Assembly: GCA_035221665.1 (NCBI GenBank)
Contig: CM069161.1
Location: forward strand, 7,130,001-7,194,000
Length of the DNA stretch: 64,000 bases
DNA from: Okamejei kenojei
Lineage: Eukaryota
Direction of reading: 5' to 3'
The notes under the pieces were generated by a model. The model was not told the DNA's origin. It made no database searches and worked only from the letters and a program-made list of their open reading frames with translations. This document shows positions 3,325 to 63,960 of the stretch, piece after piece. The position numbers and the translations under genes are program-made. Each line of letters opens with the position of its first letter. The first letter of the stretch is position 1.

Positions 3325-4260
3325 TAGCATAGAACGGTGGGTGTATGGAGCGAGCTGCTGGAGGAGGTAGTTGTGGCAGATGCTACCACAATGTTCAAGA
3401 AACATTTAGACAGGTACATGGATGGTAATAGGTTTGGAAGGATAGGGGCCAAACGCAGGCAGGTGGAACTAGTGTAGATGGGGCATGTTGGTCGGCATGG
3501 GCAAGTTGGGCTGAAGGGCCTGTTTCCATGCTGTATCACTCTCTGAATATTGCAGCACAAGAACTGGCCCTTTAGCCCACACTTTGGGCCGAACATGGTG
3601 CCAAGTCCATCTCTTATCTGAATCAGACATCAGTCTGAAGAAGGGTCGCGAGTCTCGACCCGAAACGCCACCCATTCCTTCTCTCCAGAGATGCTGCCTG
3701 TCCCGCAGTTACTCCAGCATTTTGTGTCCATCCCTTAACTACCTGTGCGTAATCCATATCCGTCCATTCCCTGCATACCCATGTGCTTATCCACTATTGT
3801 ATCTGTCTCAACCACCACCCCCTGGCAGTATGTTCCAGGCACCCACCACCCTCTGTGTAAAAAAACTTTCCCCACACATCTCCTTTAAACTTTGCCCCTC
3901 TCACCTTAAAGCTGTGCCCTCTAGTATTTGATTTTTCCATCCTTGGACAAAGGTACTGACTATCTGCTCGATCTATGCCTCTCATATTTGTATCTACATC
4001 TATCAGGTCTTCCGCAACTTCCGAGCGTTCCAGAGAAAACAATTCTGTACAAATTCTGTCCAACTTCTCCCTGTAGCTAATACCACATAATCCAGGCGTC
4101 ATTCTGGTAAACCTCCTCTGCCCCCTCTCCAACGCCTCCACATCCTTCCCGTAATGGGGCGACCAGAACTACACGTAATATTCCAAATGTGGCTGAACCA
4201 AAGTCCTGTAATGTTGCATCATGCCATCCTGACTCTTATACTCAATGTCCCGACCTATGA
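3325..4260. mobile_element. Cluster of CR1 3' fragments (+ 3325-3545; - 3555-4260) with a Penelope terminal repeat inserted at ~3625-3732
   Basis: ORF 3794-4141 (QRRFTRMTPGL...TRGHSFKVRG) is CR1 ORF2; ctgaagaagggtc...gacccgaaacg lies at ~3634-3667. Confidence 0.8.
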
Positions 4261-5880: not shown

Positions 5881-5949
5881 GTTTTCCAGCATTCAGGGCA
5901 GATTTGACTGAAGACTGCATTTTTTTGTGTGGGAGAGTACTTACCTTAA

Positions 5950-7384: not shown

Positions 7385-7500
7385 AGTCATGTTGGCATGG
7401 CCACATTGGTGAGGTCATGTTGGAGTGGCCACATTGGAGAGGTCATGTTGGCATGGCCACATTGGTGAGGTCAAGTTGGAGCAGCTATGTTAGAGCGGCC
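7385..7500 (+). repeat. 28-bp tandem repeat (ggtcatgttggcatggccacattggtga), about 3-4 copies with a 14-bp subperiod
   Basis: Directly visible; lies in the presumed CR1 5'UTR. Confidence 0.85.
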
Positions 7501-11239: not shown

Positions 11240-12235
11240 GTGGTTCTATGCTTGCAAAAAATGTCTATTGGTTCTACATGCTTGCAGAAAGTGTCTATTG
11301 GTTCTAAAATGCTTGCAAAAAGTGTCTATTCATTCTAAAATGCTTGCAGAAAGTGTCTATTGGTTCAAAACTGCTTGCAAAACGTCTGTCTATTGGATCT
11401 AAAATGGTTGCAGGAAGAGTGTCTTTATTGGTTCTAAAATGGTTGCAGAAAGAGTGTCTATTGGTTTGAAAATGCTTGCAGAAAGATTGTCACTATTGGT
11501 TCTAAAATGCTTGCAAAAAGTGTGTCTATTGGTTCTAAAATGCTTGCAAAAAGTGTATATTGGTTCTAAAATACTTGCAAAAAGTGTCTGTTGGTTCTAA
11601 AATGCTTGCAAAAAATGTCTATTGGTTCTAAAATGCTTGCAGAAAGTGTCTCTATTGGTTCTAAAATGCTTGCATGAAAAGTGTCTCTATTGGTTCTAAA
11701 ATGCTTGCAGAAAGAGTGTATTGGTTCTCAAATGCTGGCAGAAAAAGTATCTCAATTGGTTCGCAAATGCTTGCAGAAATAGTGTCTCTATTGGTTCTAA
11801 AATTCGTGCAGAAAAAGTGTCTCTATTGGTTCTCAAATGCTTGCAGAAAGAGTGTCTCTATTGGTTCCAAAATGCTTGCACAAGGTATCTATTGGATCTA
11901 AAATGCTTGCAGAAAGTGTCTCTGTTGGTTCTAAAATGCTTGCAAAAAGTGTGTCTATGGTTCTAAGATGCTTGCAAAAAGTGTGTCTATTGGTTCTAAA
12001 ATGCTTGCAAAAAGTGTGTCTATTAGTTCTAAAATGCTTGCAAAAAGTGTGTCTATTAGTTCTAAAATGCTTGCAAAAGGTGTGTCTATGGTTCTAAGAT
12101 GCTTGCAAAAAGTGTGTCTATTGGTTCTAAAATGCTTGCAAAAAGTGTGTCTATTGGTTCTAAAATGCTTGCAAAAGGTGTCTCTATTGGTTCTAAAATA
12201 CTTGCAAAAAGTGTCTCAATTGGTTCTAAAATGCT
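11240..12235 (+). repeat. Minisatellite, ~31-34 bp unit (gtgtctattggttctaaaatgcttgcaaaaa), about 30 copies
   Basis: Directly visible; it produces the repetitive spurious ORFs at 11674-12469. Confidence 0.97.
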
Positions 12236-12330: not shown

Positions 12331-12789
12331 CAAGATTCCATTCGACCCACAATGTCCTTATTAAACCGTTCCTTTGACCCACAACACACATACTAATGCT
12401 CCAGAAATTGGTGGAGAGGTGGAATATTGCATTGGGGGACCAGCCCTCCTGTGTGAAGCTGGGACTCAACGGGTCCCACTTAGTCTCGTATTATATATTT
12501 ATATTATATATTATATTTATTATATATTATTTAAATGAGGAACTAATTAACCCACATATATATATATATACAAATCATGGGTTAATTAGCTCCTTAAGCT
12601 AATTAAACTAAATATATAAAATATAAAATATATATGGAAGGATAGCAGACCAAGCACTTGACGTATGTTTCAAGGCAAGTTGTAAAGGAAGACTTCCCTC
12701 CTTTAGAGGCTTTAGAGAGAACTCCAGAGATTTGGGTCTTGTCAGCTGAGTTCTGCCCTGACTGGCAACAGCTGACAGTAAATAAACAA

Positions 12790-13180
12790 GATAGATACAT
12801 AATGAGTAACTCAGCGGGACAGGCAGCATCGCTCGAGAGAAGGAATGGGTAACATTTTGGGTCGAGATACTTCTTCAATCGCTGAGTTACTCCAGCTTTT
12901 TGTGTCTATCTTCAGTTTAAACCAGCATCTGCAGTTCCTTCCTATACAGTAAATAATCATCACCAGTAGACTATTGGTAGACAAAAATGCTGGAGAAACT
13001 CAGCGGGTGAGGCAGCATCTATGGAGCGAAGGAAATAGGCGACGTTTCGGGTCGAGACCCTTCTTTTCGACCCGAAACGTCGCCTATTTCCTTCACTCCA
13101 TAGATGCTGCCTCACCCGCTGAGTTTCTCTAGCATTTTTGTCTACCTTCGATTTTCCAGCATCTGCAGTTCCTTCTTAAA
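12790..13180. mobile_element. Two Penelope-like insertions, each an inverted pair of terminal repeats
   Basis: Near-perfect palindrome at 12976-13146 (~80-bp arms); direct repeat accagtaga at 12962-12970 and 13187-13195. Confidence 0.75.
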
Positions 13181-13619
13181 CTCTTAACCAGTAGATCATT
13201 GATATCTCTCAGCCCCTGGTGGAGACTTGATGTTCTCAAGAGTGTGGGAAGGTAGAACTGGTGGAAATGGAAATGCTGATGGCAAATTATCCTAATTACT
13301 TCCAGTATTGTTTGCTTTAAATTATCTATCTTTTATTAATGAATTTGTGGTAATATTGGAACTATATTCAATTTGTTTAAATATTTTTTTTTTAAGTGTC
13401 AGGTCGTTAACCTCGATGAAAGAAATATCATTTATGAAATATCAGTTTAATTTTAAAGGCAGACAACTTTAGTGTAAGGAATTCATATAAACATTACTCT
13501 CTGGATACATATAACATATATAAAATTACATGTAACATGTATACAACTATTAAAATATACATCACCATACAGACAAAGTGATGTTGGGAAGTTGAAACAG
13601 TTTTAGTGATTATGGATTC

Positions 13620-14440: not shown

Positions 14441-15154
14441 GTAGGATTATTTTGCACTTGGAGAATAACCAAAATGAGAACCCTTATACTTCGCTGAAGT
14501 AAAAAGAGTAGAAAAATAAGAATTAAAAGCAGGAAATATTCAACAGGTCAGGCAGCATTCAAGGAGGGACAGAGTTCATGTTTCAATTCAAGAAACGTTT
14601 TAAATTTTTAATTCAGATTTGCATCTGCGGTTCTGTTTTGCTTTTTTATGTTCCAGGAGCAGTGCAGGTAGTTGAGTGGCCGAGGAAGAGACAGGGGATG
14701 TGAGCTGAAATGTCGGGGAGAAATACCGTTTCATTATCCCTTCACACAATGGAAAATGCTGAAATCCAGATACAAGGGATCGGGCTCTAGATTGAACTGG
14801 TTCCTTTTCACAGGGCGAGATAAATCAAGGGCAGATCAATATCACGGAACAATAGTCCGTTTCCTGGGAGAACATTACATCACTCTGTCAACATATGAGG
14901 ACAAAGTGGAGATTTTCCAGTTGCACTGTGCTTAATCCTGAAATTGATGATGGTCTTTCGCTAACCTGAAGCAAGGCTGATGCATTGAACTTTAAAGGGA
15001 ACAACTAAGTCTTTCCCTATTTCACATGCAAGTCCTTTCCATATTTGAACGTTTGCAGTAACTTCCTGTGAATTCCTCAGAGATTGCTGAGTCATAGCAT
15101 TAGTCCCCAGATTATAAAATGGCTTTCTTCTAAAACAGGAGCAAGTAGTTTTGG

Positions 15155-15620
15155 CAGGAAGGAACTGCAGATGCTGGTTTAAACCCAAGATAGACACAAA
15201 ATGCTGGAGTAACTCAGCGGGACAGGCTGCATCTCTGGAGAGAAGGAACGGGTGACGTTTCGGATCGAGACCCTTCTTCAAACTGACATTGGGGGGGGAG
15301 GGGGGATAAAAGTGTGAAGGTGTGAAGAAAATAGGGTGAAGGGAATGCTTACACCCTAGCAGTATGAACATTGACTTCTCTAACTTCAAGTAACCCTTGC
15401 TTTCCCTCTCTCTCCATTCCTCCCCCTTCCCAGTTCACCGACCAGTCTTACTGTCACCGACTACATTTTATCTCTGTTTGCTTTGTTGTCACCTTCTCCC
15501 AGCTAACAGTGATCCATTATATATGTTCCTTGATCTCCATTCCCTTTGCCCTGTTTTCACACCTTCATACTTCCTTATCTATCTATCTCCCTCTCCCCTG
15601 ACTCTCAGACTGAAGAAGAG
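15155..15620. mobile_element. Penelope-like element: inverted terminal repeat (15155-15290), then ORF C-terminus and 3' region on +
   Basis: 15349-15393 translates to LHPSSMNIDFSNFK*, resembling the L-x-P-x-G-[LM]-N end of Penelope GIY-YIG domains; ends in a truncated ctgaagaag hammerhead core. Confidence 0.7.
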
Positions 15621-17809: not shown

Positions 17810-18960
17810 ATGCAAACAAGAGCTGGAGCAACTCAGTGGCTCAAGCAGCATTTGTGCAGGTGATAGAAACATAGAAGCAGGAGGTGCAGGAGGAGGACAT
17901 TCAGCCCTTCGAGCCAGCACCACCATTCATTACGATCATGGCTGATCGTCCCAGCCTTCTCCACATATCCCTTGATTCCTCTAGCCCCTAGAGCTCTATC
18001 TAACTCTCTCTTAAATCCACCCAGTGATTTGGCCTCCACTGGCGAGGAGATATTTCATGGTCTTATTCAGACTGGTGTCATGTCCCGTTCCAAAACATCG
18101 GCCATCAGTCTGAAGAAGGCTTCCGACCCAAAACGCCGCCCATGCAGTCACCTCTTCCGCAGATGCTGCCTGACCTGCTGCGTTACTCCGGCACTTTGTG
18201 TTTGGCTCAAGATTCCAGCACCTGTAATTCCTCGTGTCTCTAGTCAAACAAACCATTGTCTCGATGATGCTTTTTATCGTCACGTGTGCAAAGTGCAAGC
18301 CCACAGTGAAATTCTTTCCTCACAAACGCTCCAGTAGAGTATTGCCATACCGAAGCACATCCCTGATTAGCAAATTGTCCAATTTAATGTAGTCGATTCT
18401 TAACGAAGATGGACAAAAAATGTTGGAGTGACTCAGCGGGTCAGGCAGCATCTCTGGAGAAAAGGAATAGGTGACGTTTCGGGTGGGAACCATCTTCATA
18501 TTGAAAGATGGGAGGGGAGGGGGGGACAGGAGGTGAGAAAAGGCCAGGACAAAACTGGATGTTAACTATTCTTAACTATTGTTCTTAACTTGATCCTCTG
18601 ACTCATGGGTAATTGGGGATAGGCATTGACAGTGCGATCCTCATCTTGTGAATAAATAAATAAATGGACAAATAAATAAATAAACAAATTCAGAGGCAGT
18701 TTCTTCCCAGCTGTTGTCAGGCAACTGAACCATCCTACCACAGCCACAGAGCAGTCCTGAACTACCATCTACCTCATCGGGGACCCTCGGGCTATCTTTG
18801 ATCGGATTTTACTGGCGTTACCTTGCACTGAACGTTATTCCCCTATCATGTATCTGTACACTGTGATTGTAATCACTTATTGTCTTTCCGCTGACTGGGT
18901 AGCACGCAACAAAAGCTTTTCACTGTACCTCGGTGCACGTGACAATAAACTCAACTGAAG
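17810..18960. mobile_element. Mixed fragments: CR1 tail (- 17865-18040), Penelope repeats (18105-18240 +, 18405-18560 -), Rex1-type tail (+ 18695-18960)
   Basis: Family-typical sequence repeated elsewhere in the window; for example 18700-18955 matches 26330-26560. Confidence 0.7.
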
Positions 18961-19701: not shown

Positions 19702-20559
19702 TTAGATGTTGAGGGGAGGTTTCTTTGCACTCGATTGGGAAGATCTTCGACTGTTACTACTGCCCAAAGACTTGGTCTTGTGAGTAGAATCCATGTCAGA
19801 ATGGTTGGAGTTCAGGTTCACCATGACCATCTTGTCCAGTAACTGGACCGAGTGTGGTTCTCGACCCTTCTCATAGTCACTGTTTGACCGGTTCTGCTGT
19901 TCAAACGTCTTTAGTTGCCGTCGGCTGAATATCTTCTTAAATAGGTGCACCAACTCCACGAAGCTGATCAGGGCGGAGAGGATGCTGACCACAAAATAAA
20001 ACATCAAAAACACTGTCTTTTCCATTGGGCGGGAGACAAAACAGTCCACGGTATGTGGGCAGGGGAAACCCGTGCAGATAAACTGCGGCTCGATCGTGAA
20101 GCCAAATATCAAATACTGGGAAACCACCAGGCCAATTTCCGCCAGAAGCCGAAGGATAACATGAACAATGTAACACTGCTGTATTCTTGGCACTCCATTG
20201 CCGGCCGGTTCCTTCCTTTGGATGATGCCAATCTTCTCTTGCGTCTCCTCGTCCTTTGAGGACAGGTGGACGGCATAGACGACAAACAGCAAGGAGGGCA
20301 CTGAGAGAAAGACTATGTGGAAGACCCAGAACCTGAAGGGCGAGATGGGGAAGGCCTTGTTGTAGCAGACCTGCTTGCAACCGGGCTGGAGTGTGTTGCA
20401 GGCAAACTCTTCCTGCTCGTCTTCGAAGATGTCGCTCCCCACCGTGGCCAGGACAAGAATGCGGAATATCATCATGAGAAGCAGCCACACACGCCCCAGC
20501 ATAGGGGCGTGCGTCTTGATCGAGTCCAGCCAATCGCTCAGGAAACTCCATTCTCCCAT
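19702..20559 (-). CDS. GJD3: Gap junction delta-3 protein (connexin 31.9/30.2 orthologue), 285 aa, uninterrupted CDS
   Basis: Four hydrophobic segments; EL1 CNTLQPGCKQVC (C-x6-C-x3-C) and EL2 CTGFPCPHTVDC (C-x4-C-x5-C). MGEW, IFRILVLATVG, FEDEQEEF, RFWxFHI and LRLLAE match recalled GJD3 sequence. Synteny with the RARA 3' end supports the call. Confidence 0.93.
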   Translation of the reverse strand: MGEWSFLSDWLDSIKTHAPMLGRVWLLLMMIFRILVLATVGSDIFEDEQEEFACNTLQPGCKQVCYNKAFPISPFRFWVFHIVFLSVPSLLFVVYAVHLSSKDEETQEKIGIIQRKEPAGNGVPRIQQCYIVHVILRLLAEIGLVVSQYLIFGFTIEPQFICTGFPCPHTVDCFVSRPMEKTVFLMFYFVVSILSALISFVELVHLFKKIFSRRQLKTFEQQNRSNSDYEKGREPHSVQLLDKMVMVNLNSNHSDMDSTHKTKSLGSSNSRRSSQSSAKKPPLNI

Positions 20560-20613
20560 TGTATGTCTGCCGCCCGCGCCTCCTCCTTTATGGCGATGCT
20601 ATTTCTTCACAAT

Positions 20614-21870: not shown

Positions 21871-22169
21871 TCTCTAACGTATCCTGTGACAAGATACATT
21901 AAAAAAAGTTTGGAACTAAATCAACAAAAACTCTATTCCAAGTCTCATTCACTGGACTAGAAAACAAACTCGTGGTTTTGCCTGAGGGAATTGAACCCAA
22001 AATGCAGTTCCTAAAGACCATCTCCAACCCCATCAACACAGAATTAATATGTCGGACCTTATGCAAGGACCTTGGTGAAACCTATGCTGAAATTACTGGT
22101 CGGTAAAAGAAGTCCATTGTGGCTGTTCAGACAGGATTCAGTGAAAGCAGGATACACCAGACTTCCCCC

Positions 22170-22310
22170 GAGTCTCAGTCTGAAGAAGGGTCTCGACCCG
22201 AAACGTCACCTATTCCTCTTCTCCAGAGATGCTGCCTGTCCCGCTGAGTGACTCCAGATTTTTGTGTCCATCTTCGGTGTAAACCAGCATCTGCAGTTCC
22301 TTCCCACACA
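22170..22310 (+). mobile_element. Penelope-like terminal repeat
   Basis: agtctgaagaagggtctcgacccgaaacgtcacc...agagatgctgcctgtcccgctgag...ccagcatctgcagttcc. Confidence 0.8.
22176..22211 (+). ncRNA. Minimal type I hammerhead ribozyme motif with intact core
   Basis: CUGAAGA (22180-22186), stem II GGGUC-uc-GACCC, GAAAC (22200-22204), GUC cleavage triplet (22205-22207); stem III reduced to palindromic ACGU. Confidence 0.65.
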
Positions 22311-22789
22311 TGCAGCCCCAGGTACTCCTACACGTCGACCAAAACTGCACCAAATGTCATGTGATGGAGGTGGTTCCTGCGGGGATGGTGGGAGGGAAAA
22401 AGTTGCCAGGAAACTTTTGTTAACTTTCTACCGACACGATCATTGAAACGGCGAGACACAGAGTCTTTCAAATAGCTTCTGAACTGTTGCTAAGGAATGC
22501 CAATAGCAGTCCTGTCAAACAAACATAACCTCTACAACAGGCGGTTCTCAATAACTTAAGCCTGTCATTGGAGAAACCAAGATAATAGGTATGCACCAAA
22601 TAAGCATAAGAGAGCAGTGAACAGGAATGCAGTTAAACTTCTTATCTCTATCATTATGAGTCTGGATGAATGACATTATGTTGAATGGTCCTTGTCAGCG
22701 GCATATTAGTTAAACTGACTGTCCACACCCCCCTAAAGATGCCGACTCAGGTAGTTTTCTTGCGTCATATTTCCAGTGACGGAGGTTCC

Positions 22790-23020: not shown

Positions 23021-23746
23021 CACGTACTGTCAAGTACCGTCTTTGTGGAACTTGCCTCGTTCACTTTGCACGTGGCTGGATAGGTTGAGAAGGACATGGG
23101 CCAAACGTGGGCAGGTGGGACTAGTGTGGATGGGAGCATGTTGGTCGCCCCCCCCCCCCCCCCCCCCCACCCTGCTACCATCAGGAAGAAGGTGCAGGGG
23201 CCCGAGTATCGTTATCTTCAGCTTCAAGACTAGCTTCTTCCCATCTCGTTATCTTCAGCTTCTTCCCATCAACCAGCAGGTTCTAGAACCGGAGACACAA
23301 GGAACTGCAGATGCTGGTTGGCAAGAAAGAGGGGATAAAGTGCTGGAGCAACTCAGCAGGTTGGGAAGCATCTCTGGAGGACATGAATAGGTGATGTTTC
23401 GGGTCAGGACCCTTCTTCAGAAGGTGGTTCTTGAACTACCCTGTGCAGCCCTAACCCCAAGTATCTCAGCAAAATACTATGGACTTTCCACTGCCAAGGA
23501 CGCAGTGCTTACGTGTACTATATACTGGGATTTATCTGGAATAATCGGTGAATTTAATGAGCCTGTAAAGCTGGAGTAAAAATAATGTAGTCGTTCTGGT
23601 CCAGGTACATCTGATGATTCAATAGTATTGTTTAGAACAGATTCAAAGCATTCAGAAGGTGTGGTGATTGCCACTGGGGTAGGGCTGAGTCACACCTGAG
23701 AGGACCTCTGAACAAGCATTATGTGAAAGTGCCCAAAATAAAATCT

Positions 23747-24025
23747 GGGCGGCAAGGTGGCACAACGGCAGAGGTGCTGCCTTACAGCGCTTACAGCACC
23801 AAAGACTCCGGTTCAATCCTGGCTACGGGTGCTTGTCTGTACGGAGTTTGTACGTTCTCCCCGTGACCTGCGTGGGTTTTCTCCGAGACCTACAGTTCTG
23901 TAGGTAAATTGGCTTGGTGTAAATGTGAAAATCGCCCCTCTTGCAGGATAGTGTTAGTGTGCGGGGATCGCGGGTTGGTGCGGACTCGAAGGGCCTGTTT
24001 CCGCTCTGTATCTCGAAACTAAAAT
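23747..24025 (+). mobile_element. HE1-type SINE
   Basis: Head, B-box ggttcaatcc, tail gaagggcctgtttccgctctgtatctc. Confidence 0.88.
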
Positions 24026-25801: not shown

Positions 25802-25974
25802 ATGGGAACAGTATTACCCAAACCACCTGATCCAAACCAGTCCAGATCCTACAAAGGAATTAAATTTTATTTTTGTTCCTTGTTGGATTCTCTCCACGCC
25901 TCTCTATCCGGTAATATCTATATCCATAACATAATATCCATATCTCGCCCCTTAATCTGACATACCTCTGACTT

Positions 25975-26560
25975 CGAAGATAGACACAAAAAGCTGGAAT
26001 AGCTCAGCGGGTCAGACAACATCTCTGGAGAGGAATAGGTGACGTGTCAGGTTGAGATGCTGCCTGTCCCGCTGAGATACTGCAGCTTTTTGTGCCTATC
26101 ATTGGTTTAAACCAGCATCTGCAATTCCTTCCGACACATACCTCTGACTTCAGTCTGTACAAGGGTTCCAACACGAAACGTCACATATTTCTATTCTCCA
26201 GAGATGCTGCCTGACCCGCTGGATACTCCAGCATTTTGTGTCTATCTTCGGTTTAAACCAGCATCTGTAGTTCCTTCCTGCACGTACCCCTGATCTTGGC
26301 TACCACCCGGCAACATTGAACTTTCTACTCACCATCTCTCACAACCAAAGAGCAGTCCTGAACCACTATCTACCTCGATGGTGACCCTCAGAATGTCCTT
26401 GTTTGAACTCTGCTGGCTTTACCTTGCACTAAACGTCACTCCCTTATCATGTACCTATACACTGTAAATGGCTCGATTGTAATCATGTATTGTCTTTCCA
26501 CTCACCGAATAGCACGCAACAAAAGCTTTTCACTGTACCTCGGTACGCGTGACAATAAAC
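25975..26560. mobile_element. Penelope terminal repeats (inverted and tandem, 25975-26285) followed by a Rex1-type 3'UTR (26330-26560 +)
   Basis: Family sequence as elsewhere; flanking duplication acatacctctgacttc at ~25960 and ~26135. Confidence 0.7.
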
Positions 26561-30572: not shown

Positions 30573-31214
30573 GTAATCTGAGCGTCATTACTCTGTAATC
30601 TTTCATCTGAGCATCATTACTCTGATCCTATCAAATGCACAGATTCCTGCTTTGCATAATCCGTGATGGAGGAACTTGCTTGAGACTGAGAGCACACGAT
30701 AAATGGACATGTTTCTGTCGTGTCCTCCAGAGCGTTTCCTGAGAAATTGGCCCACACTATTCTCGGGTACATCATTCGCAGGCCAGGGGCTGGGGGACAT
30801 TGCTCACGCTGGTTCCCGCACTTGCCTTCTCACTTCCAAACAGACTGTTCCTCCCCACCCCTGAAGTACAGACATCCCCACCTGAGAAGGGCACCTTCTT
30901 CAGACTGAGAGAGGGTCCCGACCTGAAACGTCACCTATCCACATTCTCCAGGTATGCTGCCCGTCCCGCTGAGTTACTCCAGCACTTTGTGTCTTTTTAT
31001 GAAAAACGAGACACTTGACATGTATCAGCTGTCAAATTCATAAAATGGTAAGTAACGGCACCAGGCCAGAATAGTAAGGAAGTAGCGTGAAAAATGTTAA
31101 ACAAAATGCCGATGCCGAAAGTCTGAAACAAGTATGAAAAATGCTGGAAATACTGCTGGAAATGTCGGTCAGGTAACATCTGTGGAAAGTGAAACAAGAA
31201 AGACAAGAGAAACT

Positions 31215-34073
31215 GTGGCGGCAAGGTGGCGCAGGGGTAGAGTTGCTGCCTTACAGCGCTGGAGGCCCTGGTTCGATCCCAACTACTGACGCTGTCTGTA
31301 CGGAGTTTGTACTTTCTCCCCGTGACCGCGTGGGTTTTCTCCGAGATCTCCGGGTTCCATCCACACTCCAAAGACGTGCAGGTTTGTTGGTTAATTGGCC
31401 TGGTCTAAGTGTAAATTGTCCCGAGTGTGTGTAGGATAGTGTTAGTGTGGGAACTCATTGGGCCAAAGGGCCTGTTTCCACGTTGTGTGTCTAGACTAAA
31501 CAAGAATTAGTTATCATTTCAAGGTGAGGACCCTTCATCACACTTTTCTCTCACCTGAAACGTTAACTCTGTTTCCCTTTCCGCAGATGCTCTCTGACTT
31601 GCTGTGTTTTGCCAGTATTTTTCTGGTTAAGTCCTGTGCCCGCTACTTTTCATCCACTTCTCTGACTGACCAATTATCCTTCTGCTTTACCCTATTAATT
31701 ATCCTTCCCACTGAGTCCACGCCGACCAGCGATCCCCGCACATTAACACTATCCGACACACACGTGGAACAATTTTACATTTGTAGCGAGCCACTTAACC
31801 TGCAAACCTGTGTGTCGTTGGAGAGTGGGAGGAAACCGAAGATCTCGGAGAAAACCCACACAGGTCATGGGGAGAACGTGCAAACTCCGTACAGACAGCA
31901 CCCGTAGTCAGGGTTAAACTCGGGTCTCTGGCGCTGTAAGGCAGCACCGTGCCGCCCCGTTCACTCTGGGTCCTGGGCATTGCTTCAGTGGATCTGAAGA
32001 CATGGCAGGTGAAATTGTGCTAAAATAATTCTCCCTTCTATTGGAGCTGAAGCACCATGATTTCAACCAGCTACTGATAAACTGTAGGTAGACAAAAATG
32101 CTGGAGAAACTCAGCGGGCGAGGCAGCATCTATGGAGCGAAGGAAATGGGCGACATTTCGGGCCGAAACCCTTCTTCAGACTGACTGTAATTAGTTAGCA
32201 ACTCCCCGTCATAGTGGCAGGAAAGGACTATTTCACCACCAGCACTCACTTTATTACAGTTAAATAAATGAGCAGTTCTATTGTCAAAAATTCTAAAGGG
32301 TAGTTTTGCTTCATTGCTTCCTCCCACTGAATTCCTTTCCTGCTCTGAAAAGTGGATTGCTTTCATCATTCAAACTTTTATTTTTCCATTAACCCAAGTG
32401 CCAGTTCAGGTAGAGATGATTGTTCTGGCTCCTGGACTTTGAAAGCTCATATCTATTGTTTTTCTGGAAATATTCAAAATAAATCAAGTAATTGTGAGAA
32501 GACGGCAGTAAAACCAACGTTTATGTGGAATTCATCCAGACGGAAGCAGAGCAACGAGTTGCAGCTCCGTGCCTGGAGTCACAGTAGTGTGTGTGTGTGT
32601 GTAGGAGAGGGACAGGGGGAAGGGGAGAGGGAGAGAGACAGACAGACAGAGAGAGACAGAGGCATTTTTGGTCCTAACCTCGGGTGCTGCCTGTGGGGAG
32701 TTTGCACGCTTTCCCTGTGACCATGTGGGTTTGCTCTGGGTCCTCCAGTTTCCTGCCACATCCCAAAAAAGTGCAGCTTTGTAGGTTCAATGACTTCTGT
32801 AAATTGCCCCTCTAGTGTAAGGAGTGGAAGTGAAAGTGGGATAACATAGAATTAGTGTGACCATGGTTAGCATGGTCTCGGCAGGCCGAAGGGCCTGTTT
32901 CCATGCTGTATCTTTCATCAATCATAATTGTGTTTGTTTTTATCCAATTTCTTTCTAAACTCCAGCTTTTTTAGGAAGGAGGGGTTTGGAATAAACAAAA
33001 GTGTAAGTGATCATGTTAGATAAGATTGGGTACAATTATAAAACCTAATATTGGGACTTCCGTTAGGTCTCGGCCCAAAACGTCATGTATCCACGTTCTC
33101 CAGAGACGCTGCCTGATCTGCTGAGTTACACCAGCACTTTGTGTCTTGAGTCTAGCGAGATACAGCTCGGAAACGGGCCTTCGGCCCAAGGTGTCTGCAC
33201 TGAAAGTGATTACCGTACACTAGCACCATCCCACACACTCGAGATAATTACTGAAGCAAAATCTTCCTACAAACCTGTACATCTTTGGAGTGCGGGAGGA
33301 ATCTGGAGCACCCGGAAAAAGCCCACGCAGGTCACGTATAAACTCAGTACAGACAGCACCCGCAGTCAGGATCAAAATCAGGTCTCTGGCGCAATGGAAC
33401 TCTACCACGGCACCACCCCGTGCCTCGTGTCCTTTGGTGTATGAATGAGTAACGGTGGTTTCTTGTTTCTAGGAGTTAATTATCAAGGCCGGGCATCAAA
33501 AGAGCTGGTCCCCTCACAGGCCTTACCTCAATGCAGGCACCCATTGCTCTGACCTGGGTTCCACAACTAAAACCTCCCCCACTGACTCCAGCCAGACCCT
33601 CAATGACCCCAATCCACCTGAGCACTGGAAAACGTGATGATGACCCCAATCCACCAAAGTTATCCTCTCCACAACACCTGCGTTTTAGACTTGCATCACA
33701 TGTCCCTGCTATATTGTGGGGCAGAACCAATATTCATTTACTTACAGCAGGTGTAGGAAGGAACTGGTGGCACGGTGGCGCAGCGGTAGAGTTGCTGCCT
33801 TACAGCGCTTGCAGCGGCAGAGATCAGGGTTCGATCCCCATTACGGGTGCTGTCTGTACGGAGTTTGCACGTTCTCCCCGTGACCCGCGTGGGTTTTCTC
33901 CGAGATCTTCTGTTTCCTCCCACACTCCAAAGACGCACAGGTTTGTCGGTTAATTAGCTTGGTCTAAGTGTAAATTGTCCCTAGTGTGTGTTAGTGTGCT
34001 GGGATCGCTGGTGGGCACAGACTCGGTGGGCCGAAGGGCCTGTTTCCGTGATGTATCTCTAAACTAAACTAAA
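31215..34073. mobile_element. Five HE1-type SINE copies (+31215-31500, -31705-31960, +32560-32920, -33155-33420, +33765-34073) plus short Penelope fragments
   Basis: Repeated head, V-domain and tail consensus. Confidence 0.85.
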
Positions 34074-34244
34074 TTGCAGATGCTGTTTGAAACCGAAGAT
34101 AGACACAAAATCTTTATTTTATTTTATTTATTTAATAATTTTATTTATCAATATAGACTCTTAGATGCTTGGAGAATCACTTCAAATGCAACTCTCTGTC
34201 CATGGAACAAACCGCCTGATAGAAGTTTATGCAACACATCTGGT

Positions 34245-38514: not shown

Positions 38515-39050
38515 GGGGCAGTGCAGTGGCACAGCTGGTAGAGCTGGCGCCTCGCAGCGCCAGAGACCTGGGTGTGGAGTTCGCACATGCACCCTGTGGT
38601 TTCCCCATGGATTTCCTCCCACATCTCAAAGACGTGGGGATTTGTAGGTTAATAGGCTTCTGTGAAATTGCCTTGATGTGTAGGAAGGAACTGCAGATGC
38701 TGGTTTACACCAAAAATAGACACAGAGCTTACAACCGAGCAGTATGAACCATTCTACATTTTCTTAGTATCGTCTGATTTGATCTATTGTTTTTGACACC
38801 TTAACCTTCCATATCTCTAGTCTCCCTCTCCCTTGACTCTCAGTCTGAAGAAGGTCTCAACCCAAAACGTTTTACGCATTTCTTCTCTCCAGAGATGCTG
38901 TCTGTCCTGCTGAGTTACTCTAGGATTTTGTGTCTATCTCTGATATGTAGGGAGTGGATTAGAAAGTTAGATAACTGAACTTATGTGAACGGGCGTGAAC
39001 TCGGTGGGCCAAAGGGCCTGTGTCAAGGCAGTATCTCTAAACTAAACATC
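38515..39050 (+). mobile_element. HE1 SINE interrupted by a Penelope-like insertion (~38680-38940)
   Basis: SINE halves joined at a duplicated atgtgtagg/atatgtagg; the insert has an inverted terminal repeat, an LQPSSMN remnant and a hammerhead-like core. Confidence 0.7.
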
Positions 39051-42670: not shown

Positions 42671-44004
42671 TTCTACTAGTTCCAAAGAAAAAAAGCTCCA
42701 ACTCTACCTGGATTTAGATCAACGATGGAACATTTTTCCAATTCAGGATCGTATGCAACTCAGAGGGGAACCTGGAGGTTCTGGTATTGCCAATGGCTCA
42801 ATATATATTTATTGTCACATATGCAATTAAATTACCACAGCGAAATGCATTTTGCATATAATGCCAGCTCTGCCATATTTGACACCCTTTCATAAAGTCC
42901 GGATTACCGCATGTTCATTCTACAGGAGCGGCTCCCAATCCCCTCCTGAAGAAGGGTCTCGACCCAAAACATCACCTAATCCTTCTCTCCAGAGATGCTG
43001 CCTGTCCCACTGAGTTACTGCAGCATTTTGTGTCTGTCTCCCAATCCCGTCCTTTGCCTATGATCGGACTCGGCACGTCCATTGCCCTAACCTTTTTGTG
43101 GAAGATATTGTAGCCTTGAAGGGATACATGTAGATGCCCCTGGAAAGTTACCACATTGGTTCATAAGTTCATAACTTCTAGGGGCAGAATTAGGACACTC
43201 AGCCCAACGAGTTTACGCTGCCATTCAATCACGACTGATCTTTTCCCCCTCAACCCCATTCTCCTGCCTTCTCCCCATGACCTTTGATACTAAGCGAACA
43301 TCAGGCGTGTGCTAAGTAAGGGAAGAATGGGTATTCATTAGAAGAAAGCGTCCACCTTTCGTGACCGTGTCTATCCTGCCACCACAATTATTCCTGCTAA
43401 TGATTTGATTAAAGTTCAATAAATATTTTTGTATTCTCTGACAGTGCGTTGGCAGGAAAAGAGTTAGTGGTGCGTTTCATGCAAGTCTTTCTGTTCATCA
43501 GATAAATACAAGAGAAACCTAATCCTGAGTTTTTGGAGAAAGTTATACAAAGTCCATTCATACTGGGTGGGGAAAAAAACCCCATAACAACCGTCAAACA
43601 AAAATCAGTCTACACAAGATAATTGATTGTAATTTTCATTCTGTAGCAAAGGTGCGTGAGATTCTGAACAAGATTTCCGCCACCTGCAACCTAACTGATA
43701 AATGGAGAGGAACTCCTTGGACACTCAGCACCTCCCTTTCACATTGCAGAAGAGTGGAATGAAAAGTGGGAGAACCTGCTTTAGAATCACACCCATTTCA
43801 ACCAAAATCCTTTGTGCAGGTTTTAAATGTGGAGCTGTTGCTTGTCAAAACCAACATTTCACAAGAAAAATTGTACAAAAACAGGGTAGAGAATTGGACG
43901 AGAAAACTTCTCCACTAAATAGGTGCAGCATTGCTACGTGGATTAAACAACATAAACACCGTGGTCAGCCATTCAGCCCATCGAGTCAGTTCTATCATTT
44001 CATT

Positions 44005-44480
44005 TGAGGATGGACACAAAAAGCTGGAGTAACTCAGAGGGTCAGGCAGCATCTCTGGAGGAAAGCAATACGTGACGTTTTGGGCCGAGACCCATCCTTC
44101 TTCAGACCGTCTGACCCGAAACGTCACCAATTCCTTTTCTCCAGAGATGTTGCCTGACCCGCCGAGTTACTCCACCTTTTTGTGTCTATCTTGGGTTTAG
44201 ACCAGGATCTGCTGCTCCTTCCTACACACTACCATTGACTTTGATCATCACTGATCTTGATCTTGCTTTCCCTTGCTTTCTCCCTCCTCCCCCTCCCCTT
44301 CCCAGCTCTCCCACAGCCCCTTTCCATCTCTTCGCCTCGTTCTTTTCTTCTTCCCACCCCCCCCCCAACCCCACATCAGTCTGAAGTAGGGTCTTGACCC
44401 GAAATGATTACCTATTCCTTTGCTCCATAGATGCTGCCTCACACTTTGAGTTTCTCCAGCATTTTTGTCCACCTTTGATC
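44005..44480. mobile_element. Penelope-like inverted terminal-repeat pair plus a further copy
   Basis: gtgacgttttgggccgagacc...cttcagacc followed by gacccgaaacgtcacc. Confidence 0.75.
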
Positions 44481-45169
44481 TTAACTCTACTTACCCAAAT
44501 ATCCAAGCACAGACTGTACAGCCTGTCAATGCGGTTTTAGAAATATTGACCTAGAAAATTCCTCCTCCTTTGCACAAGTCTTCAAATATTTTCTGGATTT
44601 ACTGCCCATGCCATCCACAGTTGCCCGTGGATTGTGGTCCCGTGGGACCTGATGGTAAATCCGATCGTCTGCCATGGACTGTGAGACTGGAATCGCGGGT
44701 GTGGAGCTCACAGCAATTCAACAACTGATTAACCCTTGGAAGGTTTCTATGCATGATTCTGGGTTGTCAGTCCTGTTCAACCAGTACATAACAGTACGTT
44801 CCCAAGCTGCCAACAGCAAGATATGAAACATTTATCCAAATAGAAAAATGTCAAAGCTGCTAATGCCACCGCAAATGCACTCTTTTATGCAACCTAATTT
44901 CCGTTCTATAACCACAACAGGGCAGACAGTCAGAACTATCTTCGGTGTAAACCAGCACCTGCAGTTTCTTCCCTTAGAAGATAGACACAAAATGCTGGAG
45001 TAACTCAGCGGGACAGGCAGCATCTCTGGAAGGAAGGAATGTGTGATGCTTCGGGTCGAGACCCTTCTTCAGACTTACCCGTTTTTCCCAATGTGGAAAC
45101 GCCCAACACTAGAGGGCGTAGCTATTAGGCGAGAGGAGGTAAGTTTAATGGCGATGTGTGGAGCAAGTG

Positions 45170-45563: not shown

Positions 45564-46704
45564 AGCAAGTGTTTTTTTTGCACAGTCATGGGGAGGCTGA
45601 AACACATTGCCAGGGCTGGTGCTGCAGGCAGATACGACAGTGGCGTTTAAGAGGATTTTAGTGAGGCACATGGACGTGGAGGGAAATGGATCGTGGGCAC
45701 ATTGCAACAGACGGCTGTGGGGACAAAGTCAATGGATGTTTATAAGACGGAGATTGACAGATTCTTGATTAGTAAGGGTGTCAGGGGTTATGGGGCGAGG
45801 GCAGGAGAATGGAGGGAGAGATAGAAATATGAGCCAGGTATGGTGGTGGAGGCAGTTACAATAATGGAATATAAATCGCTTGTACATAGACACACAGATA
45901 TACAGGAACGGAGGAATATGGATCACGTGCAGTCTAAAGGAGATGGACATGGTGGGCAGAAGGGCCTATTCCTGTTCTGCACCGTTCTAAGTCCTATGTC
46001 GTATGTCTCTGGAACACAGATCCATGGACACTGAAGGACGCAGGGAAATATAGATTTTTTTCACAGTGAGTAATTTCCCCTTCTGGTCTGTCCCATGAGT
46101 TAGAGACACAGATTGCAATCACTTGCAAGATTTATTTTGTTTAGTCATGCTGTAAATGTTTAGTAGGATTTTTTGGAATGTTTCTTTATGGTTTTCTAAC
46201 GCTGGTTGTCTGAAATTTACGGCTTCGTAATCTTTCCAAATGAAAACTATTGAAAAGCAAATGACCCAGAATACCTTTGAACCTGCGCGTTTATATTCCT
46301 CTCTTTATGAGATTTATGAACCTCCTCGAGGGAAAAAAAAAAACCTGAGGAGGGACCGAAACACAAATGTGGGTCTTCAGACCAGTTGAACTAGAATGCT
46401 AAACACCACAATTGCCCAAACTGTTGCTCAGCGCAATAATCCATGGGGTTACCCAGTCCCAAACTTAGAAAACCCATTGTCTGAATTCCCATAAGGCAGA
46501 CACCACCCACCCCACAGGCTTACAGTTCTTAGAAGCCACAAAACTGGCTGCACAGGAGGCCCTTCAGCCCATCGGATCGATGCCAGCCAAATGTGGATTT
46601 CAGGTTAATCCCATTTAGAATCATAGAGTCATCTTGGATCTCAAACTACATCTTTGTAGGATTTGGCTCTTCAAGGGCCTGTACAGGTACCATCTGATGG
46701 TCTG

Positions 46705-46945
46705 TGCAGAAAGGAACTGCAGATGCTGGTTTAAACCTAAGATAGACCAAAGAACCAAGACACAAAATGCTGGAGTAACTCAGCGGGACAGGCAGCATTT
46801 CTGGAGAGAAGGAATGGGTCGAGACCCTTCTTCAGACCCTGACTTCTTCAGACTGAAGAAGGATCTCAACCCGAAACGTCACCCATTCCTTCTCTCAAGA
46901 GATGCTGCCTGTCCCGCTGAGTTACTCCAGCATTTTGTGTCTATT
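46705..46945. mobile_element. Penelope-like inverted terminal-repeat pair
   Basis: cttcttcagac / ctgaagaag palindromic centre; arms are reverse complements. Confidence 0.8.
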
Positions 46946-53003: not shown

Positions 53004-55154
53004 TTAGACTAACATGTGGAACAGGTCTGGAAAGATAAAGAGCTGGATGATGGGAAATCCATTGCAAAGGGCCAACACTAAATCAGCAGGCAAATGATGG
53101 GACCAATGGTATATCCCTGGTTAGACACAAAATGCTGGAGGAACTCAGTGGGATAGGCAGCAACTCTAGAGAAAAGAAGGATCTTGACCCAAAATGTTTA
53201 AATCACCATCTGCAGTTCCTTCCTATACAGTGGTTTAGCCCGGCCTGACGGATGGTAAATCCCTCTGCCTCTGCCTAGGGAGGTGCGCTGTTGTCTTTGC
53301 GTACTTTCCAGATTATCAATATGAGAGGAACTGCAGTTGCTGGAATCTTGAGGAAAACGCAAAAGGCTGGAGGAACTCAGCGGGTCACGCAGCATCTGTG
53401 GAGGGAATGGACAGATGTCCTTTCGGATTAGGACACTTCCTCAGACTGGTGGAGTGGGGGGGGAGGGGTGTTAACAAAGCTGGAAAAGAGAGATGCGTTG
53501 GGGAAAAGCTATGAAAGTGATCCATCTAACATTTTTCCAGATTTCTCCCAACAATTCCAAGTGTCCTAACCAGAAATATCAATTTCCTCCACAGTGCTGC
53601 TTGACCCATTGAGGTCCTCCAGTTGTTTGGTGTTTTTTTCCAGATTATAGATAGTAAGCATCAGATAGTGGCCCATGTCATTACTGTGTAGAGACAACGA
53701 TGGCATCATTTATGGAACCTTGTACAGTAAGATTCATCTTACATATCACAACATCCAAAGTCAGAATTGAACCTGGTTCGTTAGAGCTATGAGGCAATAG
53801 CACTAATTGCTGCACCTTTATGCTGGTACAAATGAGACAATCTACCAAGAAGATATCATATCTCAAATTACCTCTCATGAAAAACTGATTGCACTTTTGC
53901 TGCTCCACCCGGCCCTAATATAACAAGTTCAAGTTCCAGTTACATTTATTGTCACATGCTTACATCATGCTTACAACCCTACAGCATACGTGCAGAATGT
54001 ACCATGACATCCCTGAAGCACGTCCTTAAGATGCTACATGGAACTGGAAGCTCTGCCTTACTAAAATACTCCAAGGCAGGTTGGATCATCGTAAATACAC
54101 TCTAGCAGCTGAGTGCACCTTGGTAACTTGCCCTGCTAATTGCTACATTACCATCAAACTAGAATATAACTCTAAATCATTCACTCACCAGCTGCTAGTA
54201 AATCATGTGTAGGACACAAGGTGCTGGAGTACCCGGTCAGGCAGCATCGGAGTTGTTTCGGGTCGGGACCCTTCGCCAATCTGGAACATCGCCTAACCAT
54301 GTCCTCCAGAGATGCTGCCTGACCTGTTGTTCTTCCTGCACTTTGTGTTTTATGCAGGATTCCATCATCCGTAGGTTCCTTGTGTCTCCATGTTAGTAAA
54401 AACCCTGGTGCTGTTTCCCTGAGCCCTCTACAGTTACGGAGACGCAGTTTGCTGCACTCACTCTAAAATTACCGGTTCACTGGAAAGTTTTTGATATTGC
54501 TAGCTACCATGCAAAAAAAAACTTTAAACGTGTGTGGGGTATTAAAAGAGTAACTTCCAATAGTCCAGATACCCCACTTGTCTAGCACCATAGACCAGGG
54601 AGTGCCAGATTATTGGACTTTTACAGATCTCCTCCCCTGACTCACGCTGGCATGAAGAACTCTCGGCACCGGGGCCAGTCCACTGCCTGACGTTATTTCA
54701 GTGGATGGTTAGAGATGATAAGAGAGAGGTCCAAAACAAAACTTCAAAAACCCAACTTCCGTTCCAAGTCATAAAATCTTCTGACTTGGCAAAATATCAT
54801 CATTCTTTGATTTCTGGCAAGTCAGTAGTCTCTGCAGCAAAGCAACTGACCAAAAAAGGATCCTGCTCCAGCTTCTCTCACCATTGAGACTGAGGAAGAC
54901 ATAAACATGAGGCACATGGGAAGTACAGGTTCATCTCCAGGTCAGACATCATCGCTACTCCGAGATCATCACTAGATCTAAATTTTGGACCATCAGCACC
55001 ATGGAGTCAAACAGCACAGAACCATGTCCTTTGGCCCAATGTGTTCATGCCAACCAAGATGCTCCATCTACGATAGCCCCACCTCCCATAAAACCTGTCC
55101 TATCCACGCACCTGTCCCTATATCTTTTAGCAGAACTACGTAGCAGAACTAACT

Positions 55155-56179: not shown

Positions 56180-57825
56180 AAGGCAGTGTAGGGTGTTGCT
56201 GAGAAGGTTGTGTGTAGTTTGGGTCGCCATACAATTTGAAAGAGGTGGGGAAGAAACGATTCACAAGGATGTTGGTGTGACTTGCGTTATGAGGAGAGAC
56301 AGGGTAGGCTGGAGATAGTCACAAGATGCTGGCGTAACTCAGCAGGAGGGGCAGCATCTCTGGAGAGAAGGGAAGGCTGATGTTCCGGGACCCGTCGCCT
56401 ATCCCTTCTCTCCAGAGATGCTGCCTGTCCCGCTGAGTTACTCCAGCATTTTGTGTCTATCTTCGGTTTAAACCAGTATCTGCAGTTCCTTCCTGCACAG
56501 GATAGGCTGGAAATGCTTTCCCTGGAGTGCAAGAGGCTCAGGGGTGAACTGAGAGGTTGAAAAGAAATTGAGGACACAGATGCTTGTATCCTGTTTATCA
56601 ACATTCCTCAGGTCCTTGTCATTTATCTCTATATGACTTCCAAAGTGCATCATTTCAGACGTATCTTCCACAGCTCCACCCAAATTTCTGGCTGATTGAT
56701 GTCCCACTGTATCTCTAAACAGCTTTTAAAACAACCTTTTAACAACCTTCTTAATTTTCGATGACTCCGTCAAATTTTGTGTCATCTGCATACTTACTCA
56801 TTCATCCAAGTCACATAGGCCCTGATGTCAATCTAATCTTATTTGTCTCAGTGCTGAACAATAGAAAAACTGACGGTCAGTGACAGATCTACCAGTGCCA
56901 TGGCAGCATTGGTTGGAACCACAAGCCCACTGACCAAGACGCAACCACCTATGATCTTCAGCTGCGCACATACATGACAAAAGTTACAAGACTACGAAGG
57001 AAAAATACATTCCACCTCCATTCTGTTGACAATCTGTTCAAGGCAAAATTATTGACACAGTTCACTCGTACGATAGGATTTCCTCCATTGCGGAAAAAAA
57101 AAGACACAAAACACTGGAGTAACTCAGTAGATCATGCAGCATCACTGAAGAACATGGATTGGGGATGTTTTGGATCAGAGGGATCCAGACCATTCAGTCT
57201 AAAGAAGGGTTCCAATCCGAAACGTCACCCATCCACTTTCTCCAGAGATGCTGCCTGATCTGCTGTTACTCCAGCACTCGTCTGACAGTCCTCCTGATTA
57301 GATTTTATCTTTGTTTGCCTCATTGTCACCTTCCCCTCGCTAACAGTGATCGATTCTATATTTTCCTTGAGCTTCGTCCCCTGTGATCTCTCATTTTCAC
57401 ACCTTACCCTTCCACATCTCTGTGCCTCCCTCTCTCCTGAGCCTGAAGAAGGGTCTCGATCCGAAACGTCACCCATTCCTTCTATCCAGGGATGACAATA
57501 GACAAAAGACAATAGGTGCGGGAGTAGGTCATTCGGCCATTCGAGCCAGCACCGCCATTCAATGTGATCATGGCTGATCATCCCCAATCAGTACCCCGTT
57601 CCTGCCTTCTCCCAATATCCCCTGACTCCACTATTTTTAAGAGCCCTATCTAGCTCTCTCTTGAAAGTATTCAGAGACCCGGATACTTCACCACCCTCTG
57701 AGGCAGAGAATTCCACAAACTCACAATTCTCTGTGTGTGATGCTGCCTGTCCCGCTGAGTATCTCCAGCATGTTGTGTCTACCTTCGGTGTAAACTAGCA
57801 TCTGCAGTTCCCTCCTACACAAACA
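56180..57825. mobile_element. Decayed CR1 pieces interleaved with Penelope repeats (56320-56500, 57100-57495, 57740-57825) and a CR1 tail (- 57495-57735)
   Basis: Family consensus; the CR1 tail interrupts a Penelope repeat at gatg. Confidence 0.7.
57440..57474 (+). ncRNA. Minimal hammerhead ribozyme motif with intact core
   Basis: CUGAAGA 57443-57449, stem II GGGUC/GAUCC, GAAAC-GUC 57463-57470; stem I is weak. Confidence 0.5.
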
Positions 57826-61900: not shown

Positions 61901-63859
61901 CTGGATTTCGTACTGAGGCACCCAACATTAGCGATTACTATAGTTATTCCCCTTCAGTGCCCTCTGCAGATAATGTGAGAGAATTTCAGCCTGTTTTTAA
62001 AAAATATTATTAATGTACTTAATCTTTGGCTGAAAACAAGTTTAAAGGTGTGATAAAAACACAAAGTGTTGGAGTCTCAACCTGCACCCTCCATAGATGC
62101 TGGCTAATTGGCTAATCTATGGAGTCTCAACCTGCCTCCATAGATGCTGGCTAATTGGCAGAATTACTGCAGCACTTCGTGCTTTGCTCAATATTCCAGA
62201 CTCTAGCAGTTACTTGCGACTCCATTTAAAGTAGAAATGCATTTACTCTCATTCTAACAATTCTCAATAAATCTATTAACAAGCACAAACACTGACTGAC
62301 CACTTTGAAGATTAAGGATGCCCAGCATCTGGAAAAGGTTAGTAGCTATTGTAATATTGGTTAATTTGGGATCACTGGAGGCTTAATCGGTCCCTATCTT
62401 ATCATACTTATGCAATCAAACAGATTCCCTTACCCCATGAACTAGCACCCATAACGTTGTCTGCCTATTCCCCCAGCAGATGCTACTTGTTTGACCCGTT
62501 GAGTTGCTCTAGCACTGTGCCAGAGACCAGCATCTGCAGTTCCTTGTGTCCAAACGGAACGTATCACACCAACTAGTTAAAACATATAGAAAATAGGTGT
62601 TGGGAGTAGGCCATTCGGCCCTTCGAGCCAGCACCGCCATTCAATATGATCACGGCTGATCATCCAAAATCAGTACCACGTTCCTGCTTTCTCCCCGTCT
62701 CCGTTGCTGAGTGTTACGGAAAGCTTGCGATTTTCTAAAGTTAGTTTGGTATTAGTTTATTGCCATGTGTACAGTGAAAAGTTATAAAGTTACGATGTTT
62801 AAAACTAATTTTATTTGACCTCTCCCACCGACAGGTAGTAAGCAGAAAAGTTTTCACTCTAACTTTGGCGTTGGGTTTTCTCCGTTAAATTAAACTTTAA
62901 AGTTTCTGGAGTTGTTTTTCCAGCAACGCCAAGCAAGACTAGCCAGCTCGTCCTGTTACAAGTTTAAATTTCGTAGGCGTGCCAAGGCACCTCCAAAATA
63001 AAATTTGATAAATCGAACGAAGTTATAATGTGTCAATTAGAGTCTGTGCCCCCTCGATGATTACCGCAGGCATCGAAATGCTCAGTGAAGACACGAAGCA
63101 AAAGGGGTAGAGAAACTGGCTTCGGTTTTGAAGGCAAGGCAAAACTTTCGCGGAACCCACCTTGTAATGTCTTGGCACTCCTTCTGGCTGCTTGTAGGAT
63201 CACGCTTCCCTTTTTTCCTATCTATCCCCCTTACATGTTCTCAATCCGACTGCCGTTGAGCGTAATGGACGATTCAGAAAACCCTAGAGCCAAGTTCGGA
63301 ACAGTGCCTCTCGTCCTTCAGTGAATCTCGCTATTCACTTCCCTTGCCGCAAAAGTCAACAATTTTTTTTTTTTTGCAGATGTCAAGTGCGGTACAAAAG
63401 CCTTCGTTTAAAAATATTTTCTTTTGGTAAACCCTTAAGGGCGAAACATCAGACGGTGCTAAATTTTCCACCGAAGTAATCTTTAACGAAAATGTAGTCA
63501 TGGTTTCGTTCATGAGTCAAACCATCTAGTCTAACTTGGAAGGAGTGCAGGCGATAGCGTGGGGGTCTTTTAAGAATACCAAGTCCTGTGTGCGATAGCT
63601 GCATTAGTAAGTCGAATGACGATATCAACAAGCCATGTTTGCTTATACCCTGCCACTTTCCCTTGGGCTCAGTAACGCTTCATAATCAGCCCCTCCAAAA
63701 ATATTTCTAAGTAAATTGATAAGCAGTCGGCAAGATGAGTGGTTTTATTTTTCGGGAGTGTATTGATATCTAAATTGGCCGTTTATAAATTGCGATTGCA
63801 TGTGGCCTTTAGTGTTGGTGAAAGACCTGAAGTACACCCTGGCAAATAACGAAATGTCT

Positions 63860-63960
63860 GAAATCTGAAGGATGTCGACCCGAAACGTCACCCATTCCTT
63901 CTCTCCAGAAATGCTGCCTGTCCCGCTGAGTTGCTCCAGCATTTTGCGTCTATCTTCCTC
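63860..63960 (+). mobile_element. Penelope-like terminal-repeat fragment
   Basis: gacccgaaacgtcacccattccttctctccaga...tgctgcctgtcccgctgag. Confidence 0.75.

Follow-up and report, generated by a model that had tools for sequence, protein, structure and literature searches.

The window, a 64,000-nucleotide stretch of contig CM069161.1 of Okamejei kenojei, carries on its forward strand a hammerhead motif with its core at 22180–22207, the letters of which are identical to those from which a sequence-only reading of this DNA had drawn a motif at 22176–22211. The core contains CUGAAGA (22180–22186), an extra A (22187) and GAAA (22200–22203). Stem I comprises 2 bp (GU/AC, 22178–22179 with 22208–22209) and stem II 4 bp (22188–22191 with 22196–22199) with a CUCG loop, and the palindrome ACGU (22203–22206) replaces stem III. 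While the motif as such stood, the 5-bp stem II with a 2-nt loop of the sequence-only reading did not, because a 2-nt loop is unable to close a hairpin. The predicted cut falls after 22207, where that reading had rightly placed it. A short UTR remnant precedes the motif, suggesting that the focal copy is likely derived from the 3′ terminal repeat (pLTR) of a Penelope-like element (PLE). No TSD was detected for the focal copy, and no empty site of it was seen in four runs from other organisms.

These features match a published class. In PMC4209133 (Cervera and De la Pena, 2014), minimal hammerheads are described from the pLTRs of metazoan PLEs, including Xena, Poseidon and Neptune of fish, with inactive monomers and dimers of low activity. 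As in that class, the motif lacks loop 3, is palindromic at 15.2–16.2, and contains the extra base between 9 and 10.1 and the G10.1–C11.1 pair as defined there. The CUGANGA...GAAA...UH core was present both at 22180–22207 and in the majority sequence of the 552 copies described below. Helix I, at 2 bp, fell short of the 4–5 bp of minimal type I hammerheads of PLEs; by the same source, Schistosoma has a stem II of 7–8 bp and a stem I of 4–5 bp, unlike the 4 bp and 2 bp here, whereas D. virilis likewise has a 2-bp helix I. A longer stem I was sought across copies and not found, positions 3 and 4 of stem I being mismatched in most of them. In how it works and in the sequence features tested, the family resembles the pLTR of an EN+ PLE that carries a minimal hammerhead, except for the short helix I and the absent covariation.

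Rfam matched no hammerhead model in the window, even with hits up to E ≤ 5 admitted. Its seven hits, all to miRNA families, below the gathering score and on inverted pairs, were dismissed as fold-back artefacts. Single-strand folding gave an unremarkable stability (z –0.7 to +1.2), and the hammerhead fold lay 1.6–6.8 kcal/mol above the best predicted fold of the focal RNA.

Table 1. Positions of the hammerhead copies and associated features (window coordinates, except for the last line).
Feature	Position	Strand	Remark
Minimal type I hammerhead	22178..22209	+	From sequence; features match the available part of PMC4209133; cleavage predicted
Focal copy of the pLTR: the hammerhead and a further ~105 nt as far as the long 3′ end	22177..22311	+	Profile and sequence
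Short PLE 3′ UTR remnant upstream of the motif	22165..22176	+	Common to UTR-bearing copies
Initiator-like TCAGTC, likely transcription start	22175..22180	+	Many family copies begin at A22177/G22178; putative promoter role
Optional tail between the family's two fixed 3′ ends	22267..22311	+	Bimodal ends: short ~22267–75, long ~22310–12
Second intact-core copy	57437..57494	+	G-U in stem II, one of two stem I pairs lost; UTR-linked, cut short
5′-truncated copy	15153..15390	-	Last GIY-YIG codons (15347–15390), UTR and pLTR
Head-to-head pair	12788..12949	.	Short and long end; 14-bp TSD
Head-to-head pair	12974..13181	.	Listed position 13040; origin of sub-threshold miRNA hits
Head-to-head pair, then direct copy	25971..26284	.	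16-bp TSD; direct copy at 26150–26284
Head-to-head pair	44003..44229	.	Listed position 44075
Head-to-head pair	46702..46944	.	Listed position 46853
Head-to-head pair	54212..54375	.	Decayed
Head-to-head pair	56306..56501	.	13-bp TSD
Head-to-head pair	57100..57277	.	
Solo copy	3630..3732	+	Degenerate
Solo copy	18104..18233	+	Degenerate
Solo copy	23298..23421	-	Palindrome gone, core retained
Solo copy	30900..30999	+	Degenerate
Solo copy	32069..32184	-	Core retained, palindrome CG now TG
UTR-linked copy	38837..38944	+	Degenerate
Solo copy	42946..43039	+	Degenerate; 13-bp TSD
UTR-linked copy	44376..44484	+	Degenerate
Copy	44960..45076	-	Degenerate
Solo copy	63856..63957	+	Degenerate
Arrays of a second, young PLE	G000:C43:10193-35837, C111, C17:11248-38704, C11:6487-19714, C10:81.01-81.04 Mb		L033, L050-L056

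A search profile trained on 30 genomic copies revealed 53 fragments in the window and none in its reversed sequence. Each of the 16 positions listed in the sequence-only reading lay on a profile match; six of them (13040, 15255, 23395, 32155, 44075 and 45045), for which no strand had been given, are on the minus strand. Strict intactness was defined as all 11 core bases, no indel, a 4-bp stem II and the ACGU palindrome, and exactly two window copies passed, at 22180 and 57443, the same two whose cores had been called intact. The density exceeds the figure of about one motif per 4 kb given earlier (29 of the 53 fragments reach the hammerhead region and 23 span it). Genome-wide, the exact 28-nt core matched 48,215 times in 2.76 Gb, versus 0 times for the reversed pattern; such tens of thousands of exact cores compare with about 4,000–9,000 motifs given for coelacanth and Xenopus in the available part of PMC4209133. 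A sample of large contigs, taken as 120 stretches of 10 kb at even spacing (1.2 Mb), contained 499 fragments that made up 3.9% of its bases, which extrapolates to ~1.15 million fragments in the genome (bootstrap 1.0–1.3 million, the sample not being random). In each of four runs from four other organisms, 148,000–180,000 contigs matched the unit. The records listed as containing it were contigs, with no RNA entry among them.

The motif heads a ~135-bp pLTR of a PLE. Genomic copies had a common, fixed 3′ end and a variable 5′ side, and the longer ones extended upstream via a pyrimidine-rich UTR into a GIY-YIG endonuclease and then RT. Across the 1.2-Mb sample and the window, 44 of 51 endonuclease 3′ ends had a pLTR downstream within 400 nt, and at selected loci a pLTR followed at most 350 nt downstream in 59 of 72. 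By this linkage, the unit is a pLTR. RT followed by GIY-YIG lay between pLTRs in L241, L244 (in which the 5′ pLTR is inverted) and L251. The 3.5-kb L241 (G000:C18) comprises a pLTR (633–769), an N-terminal region, RT, EN (3701–4041) and a second pLTR (4148–4284), with broken reading frames. In L242 and L241 the tail runs directly into the coding region, with a likely start codon just past it. No intact ORF was found among the element copies examined; Pfam matches to RVT_1 (E 7e-5) and GIY-YIG (E 5e-4 to 8e-4) both fell under the curated cut-offs, and a 442-aa piece had 255 RT-bearing relatives at E ≤ 1e-30, the best 53% identical. In the window, the truncated copy at 15153–15390 retains endonuclease codons, which ties the window family to the PLE. 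Linkage and counts together agree with the earlier recognition of a minimal type I hammerhead of a PLE at very high copy number.

The linker that joins RT to EN, CNHRRCNTC, fits CX2-5CxxC, given in PMC8557442 as the Neptune/Nematis motif. The carrier is probably a Neptune-type PLE, a clade assignment that rests on this linker motif, which Nematis shares. The order of RT and GIY-YIG, the Cys linker and 5′ truncation are as described for EN+ PLEs of the Neptune clade in PMC8557442 and PMC3846280, and so are partial tandems, inverted pLTRs with a 30–40-bp tail at one end, and TSDs; the tail-at-one-end layout was already described in PMC3846280. Unlike those elements, the present family shows an extreme excess of pLTR-only solo or inverted insertions with a fixed 5′ edge. 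In the same DNA there were 552 pLTR fragments and 7 RT matches.

The 3′ ends of these fragments were bimodal, the two fixed points lying some 35–40 nt from each other. As in the published class (PMC4209133, available part), most copies were solo and close pairs lay on opposite strands: 178 of the 552 fragments formed 89 close head-to-head pairs (≤50 nt), versus 27 direct pairs. Fourteen of the 89 were unclassifiable by end type and left out; among the remaining 75, a long end was combined with a short one in 67 (p = 5e-13), versus 40 of 75 distant controls. TSDs of at least 12 nt (12–19) were found for 22 of 88 pairs and, among solo copies, for 17 of 110, against a null of 0.3–0.5%, and for 0 of 66 UTR-linked copies, in which the scan covered just the 30 nt ahead of the core. 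Since the TSD flanks the whole head-to-head pair, the pair represents one insertion. The short arm was the longer one at the 5′ side in 33 of the 67 pairs and the long arm in 13, the two being equal in 21. A short arm reaching further 5′ is impossible by fold-back of a single cDNA, from which we infer two cDNAs, one per DNA end.

At the 5′ edge, anchoring 261 copies at the core (66 UTR-linked and 195 without a long UTR) revealed that the 195 retained the template base at –1, –2 and –3 in 143, 144 and 125 cases and at –4 and –5 in 76 and 78, while the UTR-linked copies retained it in 57 at –3 and in 56 at –4. In the runs from the four other organisms, loose ends accumulated before 22177 and 22178, with unrelated flanks. 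Many copies thus begin 2–3 nt upstream of the core, often with an additional G before. This base was G in 19 of 41 copies with an AGT edge (expected 26%, p = 0.004) and in 21 of 31 with a GT edge (expected 28%, p = 6e-6). Before the AGT edge A was as frequent as G (19/41 each), and the G at the GT edge may partly reflect A-to-G decay (2/66 in UTR-linked copies). This edge coincides with the A in TCAGTC, which we take to be an initiator-like word. An internal promoter is described for Penelope of D. virilis (PMC2377424, in part), and the additional G resembles the cap-derived G found at junctions of full-length L1 (PMC11702581, in part). Together, the fixed start and end points likely record the element's mode of copying.

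Whether the copies are themselves working ribozymes was approached from intactness, decay and insertion starts. Intact motifs made up 39 of 311 motif-spanning copies (37/288 in the sample, 13%; 2/23 in the window, ~8%), which corresponds to tens of thousands genome-wide, so that some could cleave. None of the 39 had an intact same-strand partner within 1 kb. Excluding CpG, core positions had changed at 6.6%, against a tail median of 9.6% (p = 0.002; p = 0.03 without subfamily sites). Once matched by base, core decay equalled the background (A 5–7% vs 6.4%, G 7–9% vs 8.2%, T 8–9% vs 8.1%) and the difference largely disappeared. G12 and the palindrome are CpG sites, lost in 25–31% of copies. As to covariation of the stems, none of six pairs was doubly changed among 16 window copies, and the variation that the sequence-only reading had noted in the stem II loop, while seen, resembles decay and subfamily drift, not covariation. 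An absence of double-sided changes is no more than expected for neutrally decaying copies of one family, and the hammerhead ancestry therefore stands unrefuted. Were cleaved RNA the template, copies would begin at the equivalent of 22208; only 4 of 552 started within 2 nt of the cut site. From these sequence features, the copies are probably not working ribozymes, and the short decaying fragments are likely dead by-products of copying instead of a circular-RNA system.

The best explanation, to which we assign a probability of roughly 0.7, would be a minimal hammerhead in the pLTR of a Neptune-type PLE, the 95–135-bp copies being decaying insertions made by the element's RT from uncut RNA. As copies so made, they are likely passengers and not functional ribozymes. 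Read from the DNA, transcription likely starts at the A of TCAGTC, 3 nt upstream of the core, and the RNA is likely capped and uncut. RT would prime internally at two positions, roughly 65 and 105 nt beyond the cut site. If it primes in the 5′ pLTR, run-off at the cap some 95 or 135 nt on would give short solo copies; if it primes in the 3′ pLTR, the products would be 5′-truncated copies with UTR and coding sequence. Were both ends of a DNA break primed, one at each site, two cDNAs joined head to head would result. A role of cleavage, if any, might be confined to full-length source elements, as an ACGU dimer and likely with the element's protein. The Anolis Poseidon element PAc offers a close comparison (PMC11167929, available part): two internal RT start sites define its tail, RT works mainly on uncut RNA, reads ending at the cut are absent, and the hammerhead needs protein. 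The bimodal 3′ ends found here match the 30–40-bp tail and two RT start sites of PAc. The ORF of PAc begins inside the hammerhead, compared with the likely start codon just past the tail here, and PAc belongs to a different clade (Poseidon) from the Neptune-type element.

A further-reaching version, which we put forward tentatively and regard as somewhat unlikely in full, holds that the hammerhead is the core promoter too, that the ~1 million copies of 95–135 bp are 5′ pLTR run-off cDNAs, and that the inverted copies arose from priming of both break ends at different sites. Since transcription would begin at the A that lies 3 nt upstream of the core, stem I could have no more than 2–3 bp. If this promoter reading were true, PLE transcription start, double priming and template jumping would be recorded in the genome at base resolution, and the promoter may be as much a reason as cleavage for the retention of the motif.

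The same ends could be produced by a self-propagating, SINE-like unit, in which solo copies with an internal promoter and RT priming sites are self-transcribed and remobilised in trans by the PLE protein. The likely start site does lie within the unit, as do both points of 3′ priming, coding copies are far fewer than short ones, TSDs are present, and in rotifers pLTRs suffice for trans mobilisation (PMC3846280, in part). Yet run-off from full-length RNA gives these ends without the extra assumption, and the independence of subfamilies from coding lineages remains an assumption, making such a unit unlikely. We consider it very unlikely that the 5′ edge reflects splicing, or arrest of RT by the folded hammerhead, instead of a capped start. 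In UTR-linked copies the CAG at 22176–22178 is preceded by a pyrimidine tract containing CTGAC and could serve as a splice acceptor, and a D. virilis intron terminates at helix I (PMC4209133, in part); against this, the edge includes the AG, no common upstream exon was seen beyond –4, the G excess favours a cap, and folding predicts a ground state other than the hammerhead.

The least probable of the readings weighed is that of the sequence-only reading, an active non-autonomous retrozyme in which tandem transcripts are cut by dimeric hammerheads and the monomers circularise and retrotranspose. The 48,215 exact cores would suit it, and so would head-to-tail joints of the ~135-nt unit and of a ~38-nt, hammerhead-only unit, which occur in the four other runs and also here (20 and 412 exact junctions in the genome, respectively). 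Non-LTR retrozymes are, moreover, non-coding, PLE-derived and equipped with a type I hammerhead, and one chondrichthyan has retrozymes averaging 363 bp (bioRxiv 10.64898/2026.07.22.740005, available part). According to that source, however, retrozymes form tandem arrays with a complete hammerhead per unit, whereas the family studied here is dispersed or inverted, with rare tandem exceptions. No intact same-strand pair was found within 1 kb, and the tandem-repeat list of the window held no array with a complete hammerhead in consecutive units. Since close pairs are mainly head-to-head, a transcript through them carries one sense and one antisense motif. The existing tandems are mostly of two units, with variable junctions and inhomogeneous arrays: against the 20 exact tail-to-head junctions of the whole unit genome-wide, the 412 hammerhead-only junctions have 3–14 spacer bases (versus 32 with 0–2), the spacer length peaking at 8–10 among 100 junctions listed, so that they lie several nt past the cut and not at it. 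Insertions do not start at the cut either. In 14 natural hammerhead dimers (from 20 loci), the stem II arms are predicted to cross-pair at –14 to –24 kcal/mol, compared with roughly –1 to –6 kcal/mol for the drawn dimer fold. Processing of tandem transcripts into short or circular RNAs is therefore not supported.

The preferred reading, a pLTR hammerhead copied from uncut RNA, involves a ribozyme and a carrier that are both known, and the suggestion of an under-described system is not supported, the class having been published with fish PLEs and close opposite-strand pairs included (PMC4209133, in part). New would be the scale, at about 4% of the sampled DNA, and the regular insertion footprint. 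A search that lay outside Repbase, Dfam and most subscription journals found no publication on the family in cartilaginous fish. The footprint bears on two open questions on PLEs, namely the origin of pLTR and inverted structures and the role of hammerhead cleavage in transposition. It agrees with the in vitro Anolis result that the template is uncut RNA, and predicts one start site and two priming sites. For repeat annotation in these fish, inverted pairs should count as transposon ends and not as miRNA precursors.

Several further repeats were observed. Hammerhead-only tandems of ~35–44 nt (e.g. L315, L322 and L325) include some trimers and belong mostly to one young subfamily, with the upstream unit stopping a few bases beyond the cut. 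They may stem from template jumps of the RT to short capped RNAs; a switch at the cap to a second short RNA would be consistent with them. L282, L290 and L310 are direct arrays of a ~66-bp internal pLTR piece without the 5′ half of the hammerhead. A genome search with the GIY-YIG family mostly revealed another, younger PLE, the studied pLTR being present at 3 of 30 loci. This second PLE forms ~6.3-kb tandem arrays, several near contig ends, with an open frame of up to 759 aa, in which the copies agree throughout the 593 aa covered; the 1.5 kb that follow its ORF yielded no clear hammerhead, and telomere-like, CCTAAC-like repeats lie downstream.

Self-matches cover about 37% of the window. Another short repeat family, with many copies (e.g. 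23735–24024, 31211–31603, 33765–34111 and 36958–37273), resembles what we take to be the tRNA-derived HE1 SINE, and LINE-like coding fragments occur, e.g. at 50883–51440. A minisatellite with a 33-bp unit in about 30 copies occupies 11248–12235, and a single-exon connexin ORF of 298 aa (Pfam Connexin, E 9e-75) lies on the minus strand at 19702–20598.
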